64,000 nt of DNA, from NCBI RefSeq assembly GCF_057098645.1, contig NZ_CM169472.1. One strand, written 5' to 3'. The first letter of the stretch is position 1. Every line of letters begins with the position of its first letter. Positions 18,721 to 24,624 of the stretch are shown here, in pieces. A program made the position numbers and the translations under genes. Below the pieces are notes generated by a model. That model was not told the DNA's origin. It searched no databases and saw only the letters and a list, made by a program, of their open reading frames with translations.

Positions 18721-20148
18721 ATGTCGATCAAAACCAGTAATACAGATTTTAAGACACGCATCCGTCAGCAAATTGAAGATCCGATCATGCGCAAAGCGGT
18801 GGCAAACGCGCAGCAGCGTATTGGGGCTAATCGGCAAAAAATGGTCGATGAATTGGGGCACTGGGAGGAGTGGCGCGATCGGGCCGCCCAGATACGTGAT
18901 CATGTTCTGAGTAATCTCGACGCTTATCTGTACCAGCTCTCAGAAAAAGTGACGCAAAACGGCGGTCACGTCTATTTTGCAAAAACCAAAGAAGACGCTA
19001 CCCGCTACATTTTACAGGTTGCCCAACGCAAAAATGCCCGGAGGGTGGTGAAATCTAAATCGATGGTGACCGAAGAGATTGGTGTCAATCATGTGTTGCA
19101 GGATGCTGGCATTCAGGTGATTGAAACCGATCTGGGTGAATATATTCTCCAGCTGGATCAAGATCCGCCATCTCATGTTGTGGTCCCGGCAATTCATAAA
19201 GATCGCCATCAGATCTGTCGAGTGCTACACGAACGTCTGGGCTATGAGGGGCCGGAAACGCCTGAAGCGATGACCTTATTCATCCGGCAAAAAATCCGCG
19301 AAGATTTCCTCAGTGCTGAAATAGGTATTACCGGCTGTAATTTCGCGGTAGCAGAGACCGGTTCGGTATGCCTGGTGACCAATGAAGGTAATGCGCGAAT
19401 GTGTACCACGCTGCCTAAAACGCATATTGCAGTAATGGGAATGGAGCGTATTGCCCCCACGTTTGCCGAGGTAGATGTATTGATCACCATGCTGGCGCGC
19501 AGTGCCGTTGGTGCACGTTTGACGGGATACAACACCTGGCTGACAGGACCGCGCGAAGCGGGGCACGTTGATGGTCCTGAAGAGTTTCATCTGGTTATTG
19601 TCGATAACGGGCGTTCTGAGGTGCTGGCCTCTGAATTTCGGGATGTGCTGCGCTGTATTCGCTGCGGGGCTTGTATGAATACTTGTCCGGCATATCGCCA
19701 TATTGGCGGTCATGGATATGGCTCTATTTATCCAGGGCCAATTGGTGCGGTGATTTCTCCGCTACTTGGCGGCTATAAAGATTTTAAAGATTTACCCTAC
19801 GCCTGCTCTTTATGCACAGCTTGTGACAACGTGTGTCCAGTGCGTATTCCGCTGTCAAAACTGATTTTGCGTCATCGTCGGGTGATGGCTGAAAAAGGGA
19901 TCACCGCAAAAGCAGAGCAACGGGCGATAAAAATGTTCGCTTATGCCAATAGTCATCCAGGATTGTGGAAAGTCGGGATGATGGCCGGCGCTCATGCGGC
20001 AAGCTGGTTTATCAATGGCGGCAAAACACCACTCAAATTTGGCGCGATTAGCGACTGGATGGAAGCACGCGATCTTCCTGAAGCTGACGGAGAGAGTTTC
20101 CGTAGTTGGTTTAAGAAACATCAGGCGCAGGAGAAAAAGAATGGATAA
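18721..20148 (+). CDS. ykgF: LutB-like iron-sulfur protein
   Basis: 4Fe-4S ferredoxin motifs CIRCGACMNTCP and CSLCTACDNVCP. Confidence 0.9.
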   Translation: MSIKTSNTDFKTRIRQQIEDPIMRKAVANAQQRIGANRQKMVDELGHWEEWRDRAAQIRDHVLSNLDAYLYQLSEKVTQNGGHVYFAKTKEDATRYILQVAQRKNARRVVKSKSMVTEEIGVNHVLQDAGIQVIETDLGEYILQLDQDPPSHVVVPAIHKDRHQICRVLHERLGYEGPETPEAMTLFIRQKIREDFLSAEIGITGCNFAVAETGSVCLVTNEGNARMCTTLPKTHIAVMGMERIAPTFAEVDVLITMLARSAVGARLTGYNTWLTGPREAGHVDGPEEFHLVIVDNGRSEVLASEFRDVLRCIRCGACMNTCPAYRHIGGHGYGSIYPGPIGAVISPLLGGYKDFKDLPYACSLCTACDNVCPVRIPLSKLILRHRRVMAEKGITAKAEQRAIKMFAYANSHPGLWKVGMMAGAHAASWFINGGKTPLKFGAISDWMEARDLPEADGESFRSWFKKHQAQEKKNG

Positions 20149-20836
20149 TCGAGGCGAATTTTTGAATAACGTTGCTCAGGCACTGGGTCGCCCGCTGCGA
20201 CTTGAACCGCAAGCAGAAGATGCGCCGCTTAATAACTATGCTAACGAGTGGCTTACCGAACTTAACCAACAGCAGCGCTGTGACGCGTTTATCCAGTTTG
20301 CCAGCGATGTTATGTTGACGCGCTGTGAGCTGACCAGCGAGGCGAAGGCGGCAGAAGCTGCAATACGTCTGTGTAAAGAGCTGGGAGATCAGTCGGTCGT
20401 GATTAGCGGTGACACGAGGCTGGAGGAATTGGGGATTAGCGAACGTTTGCAGCAGGAATGCAATGCCGTTGTTTGGGATCCGGCGAAAGGTGCCGAGAAT
20501 ATCTCGCAGGCAGAGCAGGCTAAAGTGGGTGTCGTGTATGCTGAATATGGTTTAACCGAATCGGGAGGCGTGGTTCTTTTTTCCGCCGCCGAGCGCGGGC
20601 GTTCATTGAGCCTGCTCCCGGAATCTTCTCTTTTTATCCTGCGTAAAAGCACAATCCTGCCGCGTGTAGCGCAACTCGCAGAAAAATTGCATCAGAAAGC
20701 GCAGGCCGGTGAACGCATGCCGTCCTGCATTAACATCATTAGCGGCCCTAGTTCAACGGCGGATATTGAGCTTATCAAAGTCGTCGGGGTTCATGGCCCG
20801 GTGAAAGCGGTGTATCTGATTATTGAGGATTGCTGA
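20141..20836 (+). CDS. ykgG: LutC-like protein
   Basis: Start placed at MDNRGEF (ATG 20141) overlapping ykgF stop by 8 nt; track ORF begins further upstream in-frame inside ykgF. Confidence 0.85.
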   Translation: MDNRGEFLNNVAQALGRPLRLEPQAEDAPLNNYANEWLTELNQQQRCDAFIQFASDVMLTRCELTSEAKAAEAAIRLCKELGDQSVVISGDTRLEELGISERLQQECNAVVWDPAKGAENISQAEQAKVGVVYAEYGLTESGGVVLFSAAERGRSLSLLPESSLFILRKSTILPRVAQLAEKLHQKAQAGERMPSCINIISGPSSTADIELIKVVGVHGPVKAVYLIIEDC

Positions 20837-20940
20837 GAGAGATATGAAGTCTGGACATAAACCTGAAGGCGGCACGAGGTTGCGAATAGCGCTAAGGACA
20901 ACCTGACTTAACCCCGTTCTGTCATGGTTATGCTCCTCTT

Positions 20941-20981
20941 CTGTAAATATCCTGGCATTAGTAATGCCAGGATATTTACAG
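20941..20981. repeat. 41-bp perfect palindrome (20-bp arms around a single G)
   Basis: ctgtaaatatcctggcatta g taatgccaggatatttacag; read directly; about 100 nt downstream of ykgG stop. Confidence 0.9.
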
Positions 20982-21076
20982 TGAAAAAGACAGGCATCCA
21001 TTCCTGAAAACGGGTTCCCTTCCCGGTCATTGTCACTTCAGCTTTATACAGGCACTCTCTATCAGAATGCTGTTTA

Positions 21077-21745
21077 TTACTGCCCAGAGTTTTGTTGGTA
21101 TTCATCTACCATTTTTTTGACAAGGCAAAACATTACAGAAATTACAATGCTTATAAAAAATCCCAGAGCCAGGTAAATGGCAGCAGGGTATTTATTTTTT
21201 ATTTCTGGTGAGCTTATAGTTACACAGCCATCACCGTTCGGATACAATGACCAGTTCCTGGTCAGGTATATCATTTTTGTATAAAGCTCACTGTTAATTG
21301 CTGAAGGCGTTTGTATCTCATCGAGAACTTGCCTGCCATTATGGTATTCTGACGCATACCATTTGATAATAGACGCCTGCACGTGAGATATTTCCGCTTC
21401 AGCAGTTGGTAAATCTCTCTTATCTCCTGACCATTCCAGCTTTATTTCTCTGTTCTTGACATCTGGGCTGGTGTGAAAAAATGTAGTAATTCGCTGAATA
21501 ACATCTTCAGTCATTGTGGTCTGACAGGCAAAGTTATTATTGCTATCACAGTTAACAAGTATACCTGGCGTTGTCTGGTTTATTTTTAGGCTGTAAATCA
21601 CTTTTATATTGTCTTTATTGATATACAGAAACAACAGCACCATAGCCATACATATAGCCATAATAAAAAGGATAACACGAATCTTTTTCTTCAGATAAAA
21701 TAAAATCTCAATCAGATCGATATCCTGTTTGATTTGTTCACTCAT
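21077..21745 (-). CDS. ykgH: inner membrane protein YkgH
   Basis: 222 aa with N- and C-terminal TM segments; conserved position after ykgEFG. Confidence 0.8.
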   Translation of the reverse strand: MSEQIKQDIDLIEILFYLKKKIRVILFIMAICMAMVLLFLYINKDNIKVIYSLKINQTTPGILVNCDSNNNFACQTTMTEDVIQRITTFFHTSPDVKNREIKLEWSGDKRDLPTAEAEISHVQASIIKWYASEYHNGRQVLDEIQTPSAINSELYTKMIYLTRNWSLYPNGDGCVTISSPEIKNKYPAAIYLALGFFISIVISVMFCLVKKMVDEYQQNSGQ

Positions 21746-21859: not shown

Positions 21860-21888
21860 CCTGCAGGCAGCATACTGCTGCCTGCAGG
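21860..21888. terminator. stem-loop downstream of autotransporter remnant (cctgcaggcagc-atact-gctgcctgcagg)
   Basis: 12-bp perfect inverted repeat read from sequence. Confidence 0.4.
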
Positions 21889-21926
21889 GGGTATAACAGT
21901 CGACAGGGGAACCGACTGCTTTATTC

Positions 21927-23159
21927 TTACCAGGTCACATTGATACCAACTACACCCTGTAGCGGATTCTCAATGTCGTCACCTTTGGTGTAGTCAAGGC
22001 TTGCATATGCTCCCATGTTTTTGGTGATATCAGCCTGTACACCTGCACCCACGCGGAATGCTGCACCGTCAATGCTGGCATTGACAGACTCATCACCCAG
22101 ACGGACTTTGTTGCCATCAGAGAATTCGTTCAGTGCGGCCAGATTCAGATAAGGTTTAACGCTCGCGTTGCCCACAGCGAAGTCATAACCCACGCGCGTA
22201 CCGGCCTCACCCAGCACAGAATTATAGCTGTCAGAATGAACGTTCACGCCGTTGAGTTGATAATCCACACCTTCCAGCGTCAGCGCAGACAGTTTGGCAT
22301 ATGGCTGAATAAACAGGCCATTACCGTCTTTCCATGTGTAACCGCCTTTAACCATCGCACCGAAACCATTGGTGTTAAAGTCAGCTTTGATGGTACCGCC
22401 ACCATTCATCAGGCGAACATCTGCCGTGTTGCTGTAGTGACCAAACTGTGCAGCAGTATCAATGAAGATACCGTTGTTATACTGGCGGCTCAGGTAAGCG
22501 TGGAAGCTGTAACCTTCAGTGTCGCCTTTGCTCTGCATGGTGGTCATGTCACCTTTCGCAGAAGACATCGCCACACCGGCCAGCCAGCTACCATCTTCAG
22601 TCATGAAGCGGGTATCACCACCCAGCATTACACCGTTTACATCCAGGTCATAGGATGCATTTCCCGCGGTGGTATGTTTCTGTTTACCGCCAAAGTACTG
22701 AATCCATACGCCGCCCTTGTCATTTTCGCTCAGACGGACAGCATCCTGACGGGCTGAGAGCGTGTCAGCCTGCAGATTAGCGACGTTAGCCGGAGCAGCT
22801 GCCATTGCCTGAATCACGGAGCTGGCGTTGGATGCTTTATGCGTGTTTTTTACGAAATAAAAGTTACCATCAGCTCCCTGTGTCAGGTCATATTGATACA
22901 GACCACCTTCCGTTGTGCCTGTGGCTTTTAGAGTGCTGTCTTTGCCGGTAGAAATAAATGCCGTTTGTTCATTGATAAGATCCAATGAACCCGCACTGTA
23001 AACACGCAAGTCACCGCTCGCTTTACCGCTGATATCCAGAGTGTTTTCAGAAGAGGCATCAACAATCAGAGTGCCGTTTTGAGAAGCAAACGTGCCAGTA
23101 TTGACTGTAGCCTTCGTGATATTAACCGTACTGTCTTTTACTGCCAGAGCATCAACTGA
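21927..23159 (-). pseudogene. autotransporter remnant: C-terminal beta-barrel translocator plus partial passenger, 5' part replaced by IS
   Basis: ORF 21927..23009 ends ...YTKGDDIENPLQGVVGINVTW (aromatic C-terminus, alternating beta-strand pattern); passenger-like sequence continues in other frames up to the IS end at 23160; no N-terminal signal peptide present. Confidence 0.7.
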
Positions 23160-23198
23160 ACCGCCCCGGGTTTCCTGGAGAGTGTTTTATCTGTGAAC

Positions 23199-24089
23199 TC
23201 AGGCTGCCAGATCATCGTTTCCGATGGAAGTATAATAAGCTTTTTCTGCTTCTGCCGGAGGAGTATGGCCCAGCCTTTCCAGCAATCGTCGATTGTTATA
23301 CCAGTCCACCCACGTGAGTGTGGCCAGTTCCACTTCTGCACGGTTTTTCCAGCTCTTACGGTGTATTACCTCCGCTTTGTAAAGACCATTGATGCTCTCC
23401 GCCATCGCGTTGTCATACGAGTCGCCTGTACTTCCTGTTGATGCCAGTAATCCGGCTTCCTTAAGCCGCTGTGTGTAGGCCAGCGATACATACTGAGAAC
23501 CTTTATCACTGTGATGGACCGTGCCGGACGGTCGACGGGCCCATAACGCCTGCTCCAGTGCATCCAGCACGAATGTCGTCTCCATGGACGATGAGACCCG
23601 CCACCCCACAATGTATCCGGCAAACACATCAATGATGAACGCCACATAGACGAAGCCCTGCCATGTGCTGACGTAAGTAAAATCAGCCACCCACAGCTGG
23701 TCAGGTCGTTCTGCCACGAACTGACGGTTTACGCGGTCGCCTGCGGCAACGGCTTTCCGGCTGATGGTCGTACGGACCTTTTTACCCCGGAGAACACCGG
23801 CAAGTCCCATAACCGCCATGAGACGTGCCACAGTGCATCTGGCCACTCTGATACCTTCCCGTAACAACTGACGCCAGACTTTACGCACACCGTATACCTT
23901 GTGATTTTCATCGTATACGCGCTGTATCTCTTTCTTCAGCCAGTCATCGCGCTGCGCACGGGCACTGCGTTTATCCGGATGATGTCGCTGTTGCTGACAG
24001 TGGTAATACGTTGACGGGGCAATATGCAGTTCGCTGCATAGCGGTCCGACCCCGTACTGCTCACGCAGCTTATCCAGCAGTGGCATCAT
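23199..24089 (-). CDS. IS3-family transposase OrfB (DDE integrase domain)
   Basis: 296 aa with integrase-core; overlaps orfA by ATGA as in frameshift-fusion transposases. Confidence 0.85.
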
Positions 24090-24412
24090 TTTTTCCAGAG
24101 GCGGTCGAACTCCGCCTTCGCAAAATAAGCGGAAGCCTGGCGAAGGATATCGTTACTGCGGCGCAGTTCACGATTTTCACGCTCCAGCTCTTTCAGACGC
24201 TGACGTTCAGCGGTGGTGAGCCCTCCATCACCGCCCCCGGTATCCCGCTCATGCTGGCGAACCCAGACACGCAGAGTCTCCGGCGTACAGCCAATCTTTG
24301 GAGCAATGGAACAAATTGTCGCCCATTGTGAGTCATATTCGCCCTGACTTTCCAGAACCATACGGACTGCCCGTTGACGGACTTCAGGGGAAAAACGAGT
24401 ATTTTTAGTCAT
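24086..24412 (-). CDS. IS3-family transposase OrfA (HTH plus leucine zipper)
   Basis: 108 aa [19 protein letters not shown]...; matches remembered IS629 OrfA. Confidence 0.85.
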
Positions 24413-24624
24413 CCTGTTTACCTCTTTCTCAGGAAGTTTAGTCTCCAGGATTCCCGGGGCGGTTCACGCATCCTTCCCTCACAGATGTCAGTACGCCAGC
24501 ACGCTGTACAGGCTGTACAGCGTGCCTCCCAATCCTGCAGCCCAGAGCAGTAGAAATATTTTGGCTCCTACACTGTAGCGAGTCCGTATGCGCCGCAGTG
24601 GGGGGGAGTAACAACGCTGCTGTG

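Follow-up and report, generated by a model that had tools for sequence, protein, structure and literature searches.

What might a long, perfect palindrome be doing between the converging ends of two Escherichia coli genes? In the window, by which we mean the whole 64-kb stretch of DNA analyzed here, positions 20941-20981 form a perfect 41-bp palindrome whose left arm CTGTAAATATCCTGGCATTA (20941-20960) and right arm TAATGCCAGGATATTTACAG (20962-20981) are each 20 nt long, 100% complementary, and separated by 1 central base (g, 20961); none of the three parts is assigned a strand. A preliminary description of this DNA had reported exactly this structure (41 bp, 20-bp arms, one central base) and had placed it about 100 bp after ykgEFG and about 95 bp after the convergent ykgH, in good agreement with the 104 nt that we find between the ykgG stop and the palindrome and the 95 nt between the ykgH stop and the palindrome. 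On one side ykgG (lutC; CDS 20141..20836, plus strand), the last gene of ykgEFG, heads toward the palindrome and encodes a protein in which a protein search identifies a LUD domain; on the other side ykgH (CDS 21077..21745, minus strand), an AT-rich orphan gene whose product contains no recognizable Pfam domain, heads toward it from the opposite direction. This gene context is based on open reading frames and on the RefSeq annotation of the record for O145 strain RM9872, which is 100% identical over 640 bp and annotates no feature between ykgG and ykgH, palindrome included. We found no paper or annotation that describes the palindrome, and the only co-mentions of ykgG and ykgH that we found were in a genome announcement and a SELEX table. 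Our answer to the question is a tentative one: we propose that the palindrome encodes a U-less, very stable RNA stem-loop that serves as a 3′-end barrier and insulator for Rho-terminated read-through, mainly that of ykgEFG, and that it is most likely an unusually long and perfect example of an ordinary kind of element.

A single-copy palindrome and its predicted folds

The palindrome is the longest among the short-spacer inverted repeats of the 64-kb window, and its arm matches itself alone in the window when up to 3 mismatches are allowed (0.01 matches expected from shuffled sequence). Simple arithmetic gives a random-sequence expectation of ~6e-8 for a perfect 20+1+20 palindrome in 64 kb; at a chance of ~1e-12 per site, such an arm pair must have arisen through some process. 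Its overall G+C content is 34%. The inner stem CCTGGCATTAgTAATGCCAGG (20951..20971, no strand), delimited from alignments, is more G+C-rich and contains all four of the polymorphic sites that separate the three major haplotypes discussed below, and the outer 10 nt on either side, TGTAAATAT and ATATTTACA, are A/T-rich. RNA transcribed from either strand is predicted to form a stem of 19 bp closed by a loop of 3 nt. The predicted RNA energy is −27.8 kcal/mol for the 41 nt of the palindrome by themselves, −12.4 kcal/mol for the inner hairpin by itself, and −37.8/−39.0 kcal/mol for the palindrome in an 81-nt context (z −7.2/−8.3 versus shuffles); as single-stranded DNA the palindrome is predicted to fold with −19.1 kcal/mol (z −11.9). 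Between haplotypes the predicted stem energy ranges from about −28 kcal/mol in this one to −20 to −26 kcal/mol in the others.

Of 5426 complete E. coli genomes searched with a 61-bp query, 5141 have the site, at one locus per genome (the query gives 2 places per genome, which are the two strands of one palindromic site), and 41-mer searches with three centre variants give a median of 1 place per genome. At least 80% of the 61-bp query is present in 5139 genomes and at least 80% of a 640-bp locus in 5011, so that the conservation which the preliminary description had proposed to check can be stated broadly: genomes with the ykgG-ykgH junction have the palindrome almost without exception. The same counts dispose of the repeat family which that description had considered. 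With one locus per genome and no second copy in the window a repeat family is ruled out, the palindrome is neither REP-like nor MITE-like, and the remark that it is unlike REP sequences was correct.

Like REP/BIME units, which are able to act as mRNA 3′ stabilizers, the palindrome is extragenic, of about the same size (~35-40 bp for the units), and located in a 3′ region; but REP/BIME units number in the hundreds and are G+C-rich and imperfect, whereas this palindrome is single copy, 34% G+C, and perfect, and it appears unlike the REP consensus. A MITE or IS remnant was also rejected, as the flanks CTCTT and TGAAAAAG are not duplicated and the palindrome is single copy. A search of viral contigs gave no match. 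Comparison with Rfam gave no family above the gathering threshold, the only matches being eukaryotic miRNA-hairpin models (22-27 bits versus 87-100). Spacing appears incompatible with the TyrR box (TGTAAA-N6-TTTACA, here N27) and the HipB operator (TATCC-N8-GGATA, here N17), and none of the LexA box, the Pho box, and the sigma-E promoter appears to fit the palindrome.

Haplotypes and origin of the spacer

Word searches assign 5133 of the 5141 genomes to three haplotypes, in numbers that mirror the biased sampling of sequenced genomes: the perfect haplotype carried by this window (centre GGCATTAgTAATGCC; 2082 genomes, 2009 of them exact), a K-12 type (centre GGTATTAcCAATGCC; 1876 genomes), and a B2 type (centre GACATTAaTAATGCC; 1175 genomes). 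The three major types differ only at palindrome positions 15, 16, 21, and 22, corresponding to 20955 (G/A), 20956 (C/T), 20961 (G/C/A), and 20962 (T/C) in the window. Positions 21 and 22 fall within the 3-nt loop; the changes at positions 15 and 16 are stem transitions which leave a G-U pair in one transcript and an A-C mismatch in the other, the pair being retained on the plus strand in K-12 and on the minus strand in B2. In two of the fetched genomes (L040 and L046) the last base of the palindrome is A instead of G, which breaks the terminal pair; this minor variant presumably accounts for some of the 73 genomes whose match to the perfect 41-mer is inexact. A metagenomic E. coli contig (L020) combines K-12 flanks with the perfect centre, indicating that the three K-12 changes act as one block. 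In addition, IS1 insertions into the right arm occur in natural isolates, and in strain RM9088 the IS1 in the palindrome is accompanied by the target-site duplication CCAGGATAT.

Is the pairing under selection? Among 14 good, distinct spacer haplotypes, the variable columns are 2 of 38 in the stem, 2 of 3 in the loop, and 34 of 200 in the spacer outside the palindrome (stem versus spacer, Fisher p 0.08), and the outer 28 nt of the palindrome are invariant (P ~0.005, for a partition made post hoc); given the p value and the post hoc partition, the signal of constraint is suggestive only. Each of the two stem changes in this set is a transition, and each leaves one transcript with a G-U pair at the altered position. 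A search for compensatory substitutions among the palindrome haplotypes found none, so that support from covariation is nil, and with no outgroup either, selection on pairing is unproven. Mutation offers another perspective, since quasi-palindromes are hot spots of template-switch mutation and long palindromes are substrates for SbcCD. The polymorphisms of this palindrome do cluster at its centre, and the three K-12-type changes co-occur on nearly identical flanks (L020 versus K-12), as might be expected of template switching, but the observed changes are unlike the product of a single arm-to-arm switch; and 41 bp is far below the length at which palindromes are unstable in E. coli.

The spacer and ykgH were found solely in sequences that are labelled E. 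coli or are E. coli-like, and all YkgH homologs with a source name are labelled Escherichia. The G+C content of ykgH and the spacer is 32-40%, that of ykgEFG (lutABC) 50-53%. In the closest non-identical lutABC loci that we fetched (two metagenome types and one plasmid-borne copy, with YkgG identities of 84-87%), similarity to E. coli ends at the base after the lutC stop. Two of these three types (L049 and L052/L053) have a G+C-rich, U-less hairpin, CCGCTCTGG...CCAGAGCGG, ~12-15 nt past the lutC stop, which suggests that the lutABC operon generally ends in a U-less hairpin structure; beyond this hairpin the two types continue into unrelated genes (GntP permease or IS1), and the third type continues into T6SS Hcp. 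The AT-rich, Escherichia-only character of the segment, together with the divergence at the lutC stop, implies that the palindrome is part of an E. coli-lineage-specific insert which includes ykgH.

A single scan of genome contigs with YkgH for copies outside E. coli picked up nothing but two short contigs of contaminating E. coli DNA within actinomycete assemblies. Apparent 75-78% relatives proved to be artefacts, which stem from G-to-A converted reads (L009/L010), from an assembly rich in errors (L011), and from a gene disrupted by an IS (L012); and another junction 12 nt to the right of the palindrome (L017, L031) derives from library chimeras that begin with the Illumina P7 primer, and is absent from complete genomes.

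Transcript ends near the palindrome

The preliminary description had offered a bidirectional terminator as one possible identity. The palindrome does have the stable, G+C-containing stem-loop of an intrinsic terminator on both strands (19 bp, −27.8 kcal/mol), but the full stem is followed by a U-tract on neither strand (UGAAAAAG on the plus strand, AAGAGGAG on the minus strand), and a terminator consensus scan of 20500-21400 gave 0 terminator-like sites. In the canonical sense, therefore, a bidirectional intrinsic terminator is not supported. Were the inner stem alone to form, it would be followed by the tail AUAUUUAC, which contains 4 U in 8 nt and begins AUA.

All of the transcript evidence comes from K-12, where the hairpin is imperfect; the window carries the perfect haplotype. 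The K-12 Term-seq data of Adams et al. 2021 (PMC7815308) place a strong minus-strand 3′ end at MG1655 324603 under each of the three growth conditions (with read scores of 43,492 and 126,276 in the two entries shown), flanked by ...GGAUGCCUGUCUUUUU|CACUGUAAAU in a table that gives the 50 nt upstream and the 10 nt downstream of each 3′ end. When coordinates are mapped via the MG1655 record (L006), the palindrome occupies MG1655 324560-324600, and this end is thus the last U of a minus-strand UCUUUUU tract (20984..20990), 3 nt before the palindrome, at window position 20984. The tract is identical in the window and K-12, and is separated from the palindrome by 2 unpaired nt (CA). Adjacent to it, alignment of the sequences reveals a small terminator hairpin of ykgH and its 3′UTR RNA, CAGGAAUGGAUGCCUG (20991..21006, minus strand), with a 4-bp stem in both the window and K-12 and a 6-bp stem in B2 (CAGGAAUGGAUUCCUG); the K-12 ykgH 3′UTR up to the U-tract has a predicted energy of −10.3 kcal/mol, which is ordinary versus shuffles. 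From a 3′ end at its own hairpin and U-tract we conclude that ykgH has a modest intrinsic terminator and that the palindrome lies outside that RNA; because this abundant minus-strand end is upstream of the palindrome, the large hairpin is not required to account for it. No other end is listed by Adams et al. 2021 (PMC7815308) in the interval 3245xx-3246xx, where there is neither a plus-strand end nor, on either strand, an RNA 3′ end directly past the hairpin. The mapping of 3′ ends on both strands that the preliminary description had called for is thus half answered by published data, with a minus-strand end 3 nt before the palindrome and none listed on the plus strand; the missing plus-strand end may reflect low expression of ykgEFG in LB or glucose, which is an assumption on our part. 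The supplements of TERMITe list neither ykgG nor ykgH.

The RNA that ends at 324603 is the "ykgH 3′UTR", which RIL-seq work by Melamed et al. 2016 (PMC5145812) and Bar et al. 2021 (PMC8175672) put forward as a putative Hfq-bound sRNA. Two northern probes, which map to ~20997-21034 directly upstream of the U-tract, detected no ykgH 3′UTR band, although RNA-seq reads do accumulate there (Bar et al. 2021, PMC8175672). This putative sRNA is the immediate neighbor of the palindrome on the same strand, with its 3′ end 3 nt away, but the palindrome lies beyond the mapped RNA and is not its terminator hairpin.

Bicyclomycin data from the Term-seq study (PMC7815308), in which only the best position per region is reported for 800-nt windows, place Rho regions on both strands. 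On the minus strand the position is MG1655 324578, inside the palindrome, where the downstream/upstream reads change from 16/160 to 199/572 with bicyclomycin (score 3.5, p 4e-7), corresponding in these K-12 data to ~10% read-through of the terminator region, and to as much as ~35% without Rho. On the plus strand the best position is MG1655 324913, antisense to ykgH and ~310 nt past the palindrome, with a change from 36/160 to 260/172 (score 6.7, p 2e-23), which implies that plus-strand transcription continues across the palindrome until Rho stops it downstream. Base composition suggests a candidate Rho-loading region in the 100 nt directly past the hairpin on the plus strand (20982..21081), which are C-rich and G-poor with a C:G ratio of 1.53, and past the hairpin on the minus strand the ratio is 1.04 in the first 100 nt and then 1.83 at 100-200 nt; C-richness is, to be sure, a weak criterion for a rut site.

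A proposed protective stem-loop and its alternatives

How might these observations fit together? We suggest that transcription from both sides would provide each RNA with a very stable 19-bp stem-loop without a U-tract, and that the palindrome would act at the RNA level as a common 3′-end barrier and insulator rather than as a classical intrinsic terminator. Plus-strand transcription of ykgEFG (lutABC), an operon that appears to lack an intrinsic terminator, would continue through the hairpin; Rho would load on the C-rich RNA just past it, with termination within antisense-ykgH; and 3′-to-5′ exonucleases would then trim the transcript back to the hairpin, so that the 3′ end of the operon would be both defined and stabilized. 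On the opposite strand, ykgH and its Hfq-bound 3′UTR RNA would end mainly at their own small hairpin and UCUUUUU, before the palindrome is reached; the 10-35% of minus-strand transcripts that read through would extend into the big hairpin, and would then be terminated by Rho. In such read-through RNAs, base pairing is predicted between the U-tract and AAGAG across the hairpin, and the hairpin would provide a back-stop for read-through of the weak ykgH terminator. By acting as 3′ barrier for ykgEFG and back-stop for ykgH, the hairpin would insulate two convergent units from each other. In this scheme we only infer that exonucleases are blocked, that the plus-strand 3′ end lies at the hairpin, and that mRNA stability or antisense interference is affected at all.

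There is precedent for such an element. Dar and Sorek 2018 (PMC6061677) describe Rho-dependent transcripts ending just past stable stem-loops that lack U-rich tails; the stem-loops shield the transcripts from PNPase and RNase II, and directly downstream of them are rut sites. The palindrome functions, we tentatively suggest, most like the protective stem-loop of a Rho-dependent transcript, though membership in the class as outlined there is incomplete. Specifically, i) the palindrome is stable, has no U-tail, lies past an operon without an intrinsic terminator, and is followed by a C-rich stretch; ii) termination in the palindrome region is bicyclomycin-sensitive on both strands in K-12; but iii) the steady-state 3′ end just after the stem which defines the class, again as outlined there, and which would disappear or move in exonuclease mutants, is not among the ends of Adams et al. 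2021; and iv) the stem is perfect, far longer than usual (19-20 bp), and common to two convergent units.

An unlikely alternative, but one that we take seriously, is that the palindrome has no selected function and is simply a passenger of the AT-rich segment that brought in ykgH, for example an old terminator of the donor. Its shortness would keep it stable, and quasi-palindromes tend to be held symmetric by template-switch repair; the spacer together with ykgH forms an AT-rich stretch specific to the E. coli lineage, with lutABC relatives diverging after the ykgG stop; the excess of conservation is non-significant (p 0.08), two of the three major haplotypes have a stem mismatch, and natural isolates tolerate IS1 in an arm; ykgH already has a terminator of its own; and the locus is reported to be transcriptionally silenced or H-NS-associated (PMC8497626; PMC3946193). 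A mere passenger is harder to reconcile with an arm pair of ~1e-12 probability per site, with a palindrome that has remained intact in every major phylogroup haplotype despite variation in 17% of the spacer columns around it, and with changes that are restricted to the loop and to two positions close to it, the pattern expected were stem pairing important. Nor do we think it likely that the palindrome is a weak bidirectional terminator, of the intrinsic or the collision type, a reading to which we give slightly less credence than to the passenger. Bidirectional intrinsic terminators between convergent genes were reportedly described by Ju et al. in 2019, together with a polymerase-collision model. 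Here the inner stem CCUGGCAUUA/UAAUGCCAGG would be the hairpin and the A/T-rich outer arms would supply an A-tract and a U-rich tract AUAUUUAC in both directions, producing the order A-rich, stem, loop, stem, U-rich exactly between convergent genes; one symmetric hairpin with mutually complementary A/T-rich flanks is indeed what the palindrome has in common with bidirectional terminators and with the collision model as presented by Wang et al. (2022, bioRxiv 10.1101/2022.10.23.513370). In that preprint a nascent-RNA stem-loop is reported to be required to position collisions of convergent polymerases, a finding which favors the terminator reading, and head-on collisions of RNA polymerases at the hairpin could add efficiency, as has been proposed for convergent pairs. 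On the minus strand the Rho score has its optimum within the palindrome, and even when bicyclomycin is present 65-90% of transcripts stop in the vicinity. Unrelated metagenome intergenic hairpins with the same 12-nt outer arms also resemble ordinary terminators: a metagenome scan with the outer arms gave 17 matches which are the E. coli locus, and 7 matches at six places in which the 12-nt arms surround different G+C-rich stems on unrelated contigs, L022/L026 lying between convergent ORFs and L034 directly after a tRNA gene, with a T-run. We judge these to be chance matches among terminator-type hairpins, as one fixed arm of a perfect hairpin fixes the other. Against a terminator, the palindrome has no real U-tract, the tail after the inner stem having only 4 U in 8 and starting AUA, and it does not pass the consensus scan; full pairing of the outer arms would sequester the U-rich tract; 3′ ends at the expected positions are unlisted on both strands (Adams et al. 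2021, PMC7815308); the strong end on the ykgH side precedes the palindrome and is accounted for by its own hairpin and U-tract; and plus-strand read-through into antisense-ykgH is evident, with Rho-dependent termination ~300 nt further on.

We consider it quite improbable that the palindrome is a DNA-level element, whether an operator bound by a protein dimer or tetramer or a site prone to cruciform formation that affects topology or acts as a roadblock. Perfect dyad symmetry over 41 bp and a predicted DNA hairpin of −19.1 kcal/mol per strand would suit such a role, but the centre of the palindrome is its most variable part, where dimer operators are usually most constrained. Convergent transcription generates positive supercoiling, which is unfavorable to cruciform extrusion. 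No binding site is annotated there. An RpoE holoenzyme peak from in vitro genomic SELEX (PMC5493296) lies at W3110 323832 in the spacer between the convergent ykgG and ykgH, at a distance of 8 bp from the palindrome (W3110 323784-323824), but its intensity is low (5.6) and the resolution ~100 bp. The three substitutions at the K-12 centre create TGGTATTACCA, which in our alignment matches the PdhR box AATTGGTnnnACCAATT (consensus from PMC7660256) at 10/14 positions; PdhR gSELEX, however, reports no type-C site, that is, none in any convergent spacer (PMC7660256), leaving a PdhR operator in K-12 unsupported. For the window haplotype, with 7/14 in that alignment, a PdhR/GntR operator is ruled out; and as the GntR-type motif is missing from both the window and the B2 haplotypes, it cannot account for the conserved palindrome. 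It is highly improbable, in our estimate, that the palindrome is an RNase III processing site in read-through transcripts. RNase III needs roughly two helical turns. Extended helices are predicted for both strands, and base pairs between the flanks (on the minus strand, UCUUUUU and AAGAG) would extend the stem to ~25-28 bp, close to the required length; cleavage would remove read-through or antisense RNA and might generate the 324603 end, which falls precisely where the lower helix gives way to the 2-nt bulge. But RNase III normally cuts inside the stem, and such 3′ ends are unlisted (Adams et al. 2021, PMC7815308); intrinsic termination ordinarily yields just this pattern, with a hairpin, a U-tract after it, and the 3′ end at the last U; and the B2 haplotype strengthens the small hairpin to 6 bp. 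Most speculative of all is a two-way switch between lactate metabolism and an Hfq-dependent RNA, or else an operator for an as yet unknown dimeric protein. In the former, induction of ykgEFG could send polymerases past the hairpin to make an RNA perfectly antisense to the ykgH 3′UTR RNA and its U-tract, and the hairpin could set the amount of antisense RNA through pausing, collision, or RNase III, and hence the level of the Hfq-bound RNA; in the latter, the K-12 lineage could have re-tuned the dyad to a FadR-type box through three clustered substitutions.

If, as we tentatively favor, the protective stem-loop defines the 3′ end of ykgEFG, the palindrome would be a clean case for the stem-loop model of Rho-dependent ends, with three natural haplotypes available for comparison (one perfect, one with a plus-strand wobble, and one with a minus-strand wobble); if not, the palindrome is an ordinary hairpin between genes. 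The ykgG-ykgH spacer also serves metabolic engineering as a chromosomal integration site, and adjoins a candidate Hfq-bound 3′UTR RNA. For the design of insertions and the anticipation of read-through there, it is useful that transcripts from the ykgH side end 3 nt before the palindrome, that the lactate operon appears to have no intrinsic terminator, and that a U-less hairpin of −28 kcal/mol lies between the two transcripts.

Natural disruption of the palindrome and the DNA beyond ykgH

The perfect palindrome between the convergent ykgG and ykgH genes (window 20941-20981) has been disrupted in nature. In strain RM9088 (L038 1540-2320) its right arm is interrupted by an IS1 element flanked by a 9 bp target duplication, CCAGGATAT, and ykgH is frameshifted; in ETEC1703, the match to the palindrome region is likewise in two pieces with an IS1 under it. 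RM9088 and, putatively, ETEC1703 are natural knock-outs of the palindrome.

The neighborhood to the right of ykgH differs between lineages. In K-12, betA directly follows ykgH; in the lineage of the window, the two are separated by PAI-X genes (hyxA, hyxR, and ipbA), IS3, and an autotransporter pseudogene. Moreover, i) the ORF layout of about window 21900-25400 is unlike that of RM9872 (NZ_CP028379.1) to the right of ykgH; ii) hyxR lies ~1.5 kb closer in the window than in NZ_CP028379.1; and iii) this region aligns in two pieces in BLAST comparisons with O145 genomes. We conclude that the source strain is structurally different to the right of ykgH, the difference from RM9872 probably reflecting IS3 content or a deletion.

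Other hairpins in the window and in metagenomes

Window 25443-25481 holds another long, nearly perfect palindrome, ACGAAACCTGACATTTTGA-t-TCAAAATGTCAGGTTTGGT, whose 19-nt arms are 95% complementary and flank a single central base. Sequence very rich in A+T follows this palindrome, which is located 24 bp upstream of a 264-aa ORF on the minus strand (24625-25419). Both length and BLAST annotation match this ORF to hyxR, thereby placing the palindrome in the hyxR-ipbA(fimX) spacer of PAI-X. Between these two palindromes, at window 21860-21888, is a perfect hairpin rich in G+C, CCTGCAGGCAGCA-gta-TGCTGCCTGCAGG. It directly follows the autotransporter pseudogene's 3′ end (minus strand), with ykgH further downstream; like the main palindrome it has no U-tract, and it is followed by CTATAAATATCC, which has the 9-mer TAAATATCC in common with the main palindrome, probably by chance.

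Hairpins with the 12-nt outer arms of the main palindrome, GTAAATATCCTG...CAGGATATTTAC, and differing G+C-rich inner stems also occur in unrelated metagenome contigs of 33-53% G+C (L019 1285-1319; L024 1222-1256; L027 464-498; L025 2652-2686; L022 509-545, with L026 the same place; and L034 921-953), three of them sharing GGCCC-nnn-GGGCC. Such matches could have arisen by chance among terminator hairpins; alternatively, some other organism may harbor a small family of them.

Possible regulator binding

Three K-12-specific substitutions at the center of the palindrome jointly create TGGTATTACCA within tcCTGGTattACCAATg (L006 4571-4587, equivalent to MG1655 324570-324586), matching the PdhR box AATTGGTnnnACCAATT at 10 of 14 positions and adjoining a lactate-utilization operon. 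Other FadR-type regulators include LldR, GlcC, and YieP, the last of which reportedly binds near ykgE. A PdhR genomic SELEX study reported no site in any convergent spacer (PMC7660256). Genomic SELEX of minor sigma factors placed a low-intensity RpoE-holoenzyme peak in the convergent ykgG/ykgH spacer at W3110 323832 (PMC5493296). This position corresponds to about window 20989, 8 bp from the palindrome, where by eye we found no convincing sigma-E promoter motif.

Public contigs that break or begin near the palindrome

Two Logan contigs spanning the ykgH region (L009 and L010, from SRR27475577 and SRR27475578) might be taken for a 78%-identical homolog, but we rejected them as converted-read artifacts because G is systematically converted to A, as in GGGAAGGGAA to AAAAAAAAAA. 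Both stop at the center of the palindrome, which suggests that the assembler breaks there.

The K-12 haplotype carries GAAGAAGGCATACGAGGT at the equivalent of window 20865-20880 (L006 4486-4503), some 70 nt to the left of the palindrome. This sequence is closely similar to CAAGCAGAAGACGGCATACGAGAT, the 3′ portion of the Illumina P7 primer; in the haplotype of the window itself, 2 nt are deleted at this site (GAAGGCGGC--ACGAGGT). Public contigs (L008, L017, and L031), one of them (L008) deposited as Amycolatopsis orientalis, start with the P7 primer joined exactly at this site and extend across the palindrome, some turning chimeric 12 nt past it. Together with a 256-bp Nocardioides malaquae contig carrying a separate ykgH fragment (L007), they look like primer-mispriming products from contaminating E. 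coli DNA.
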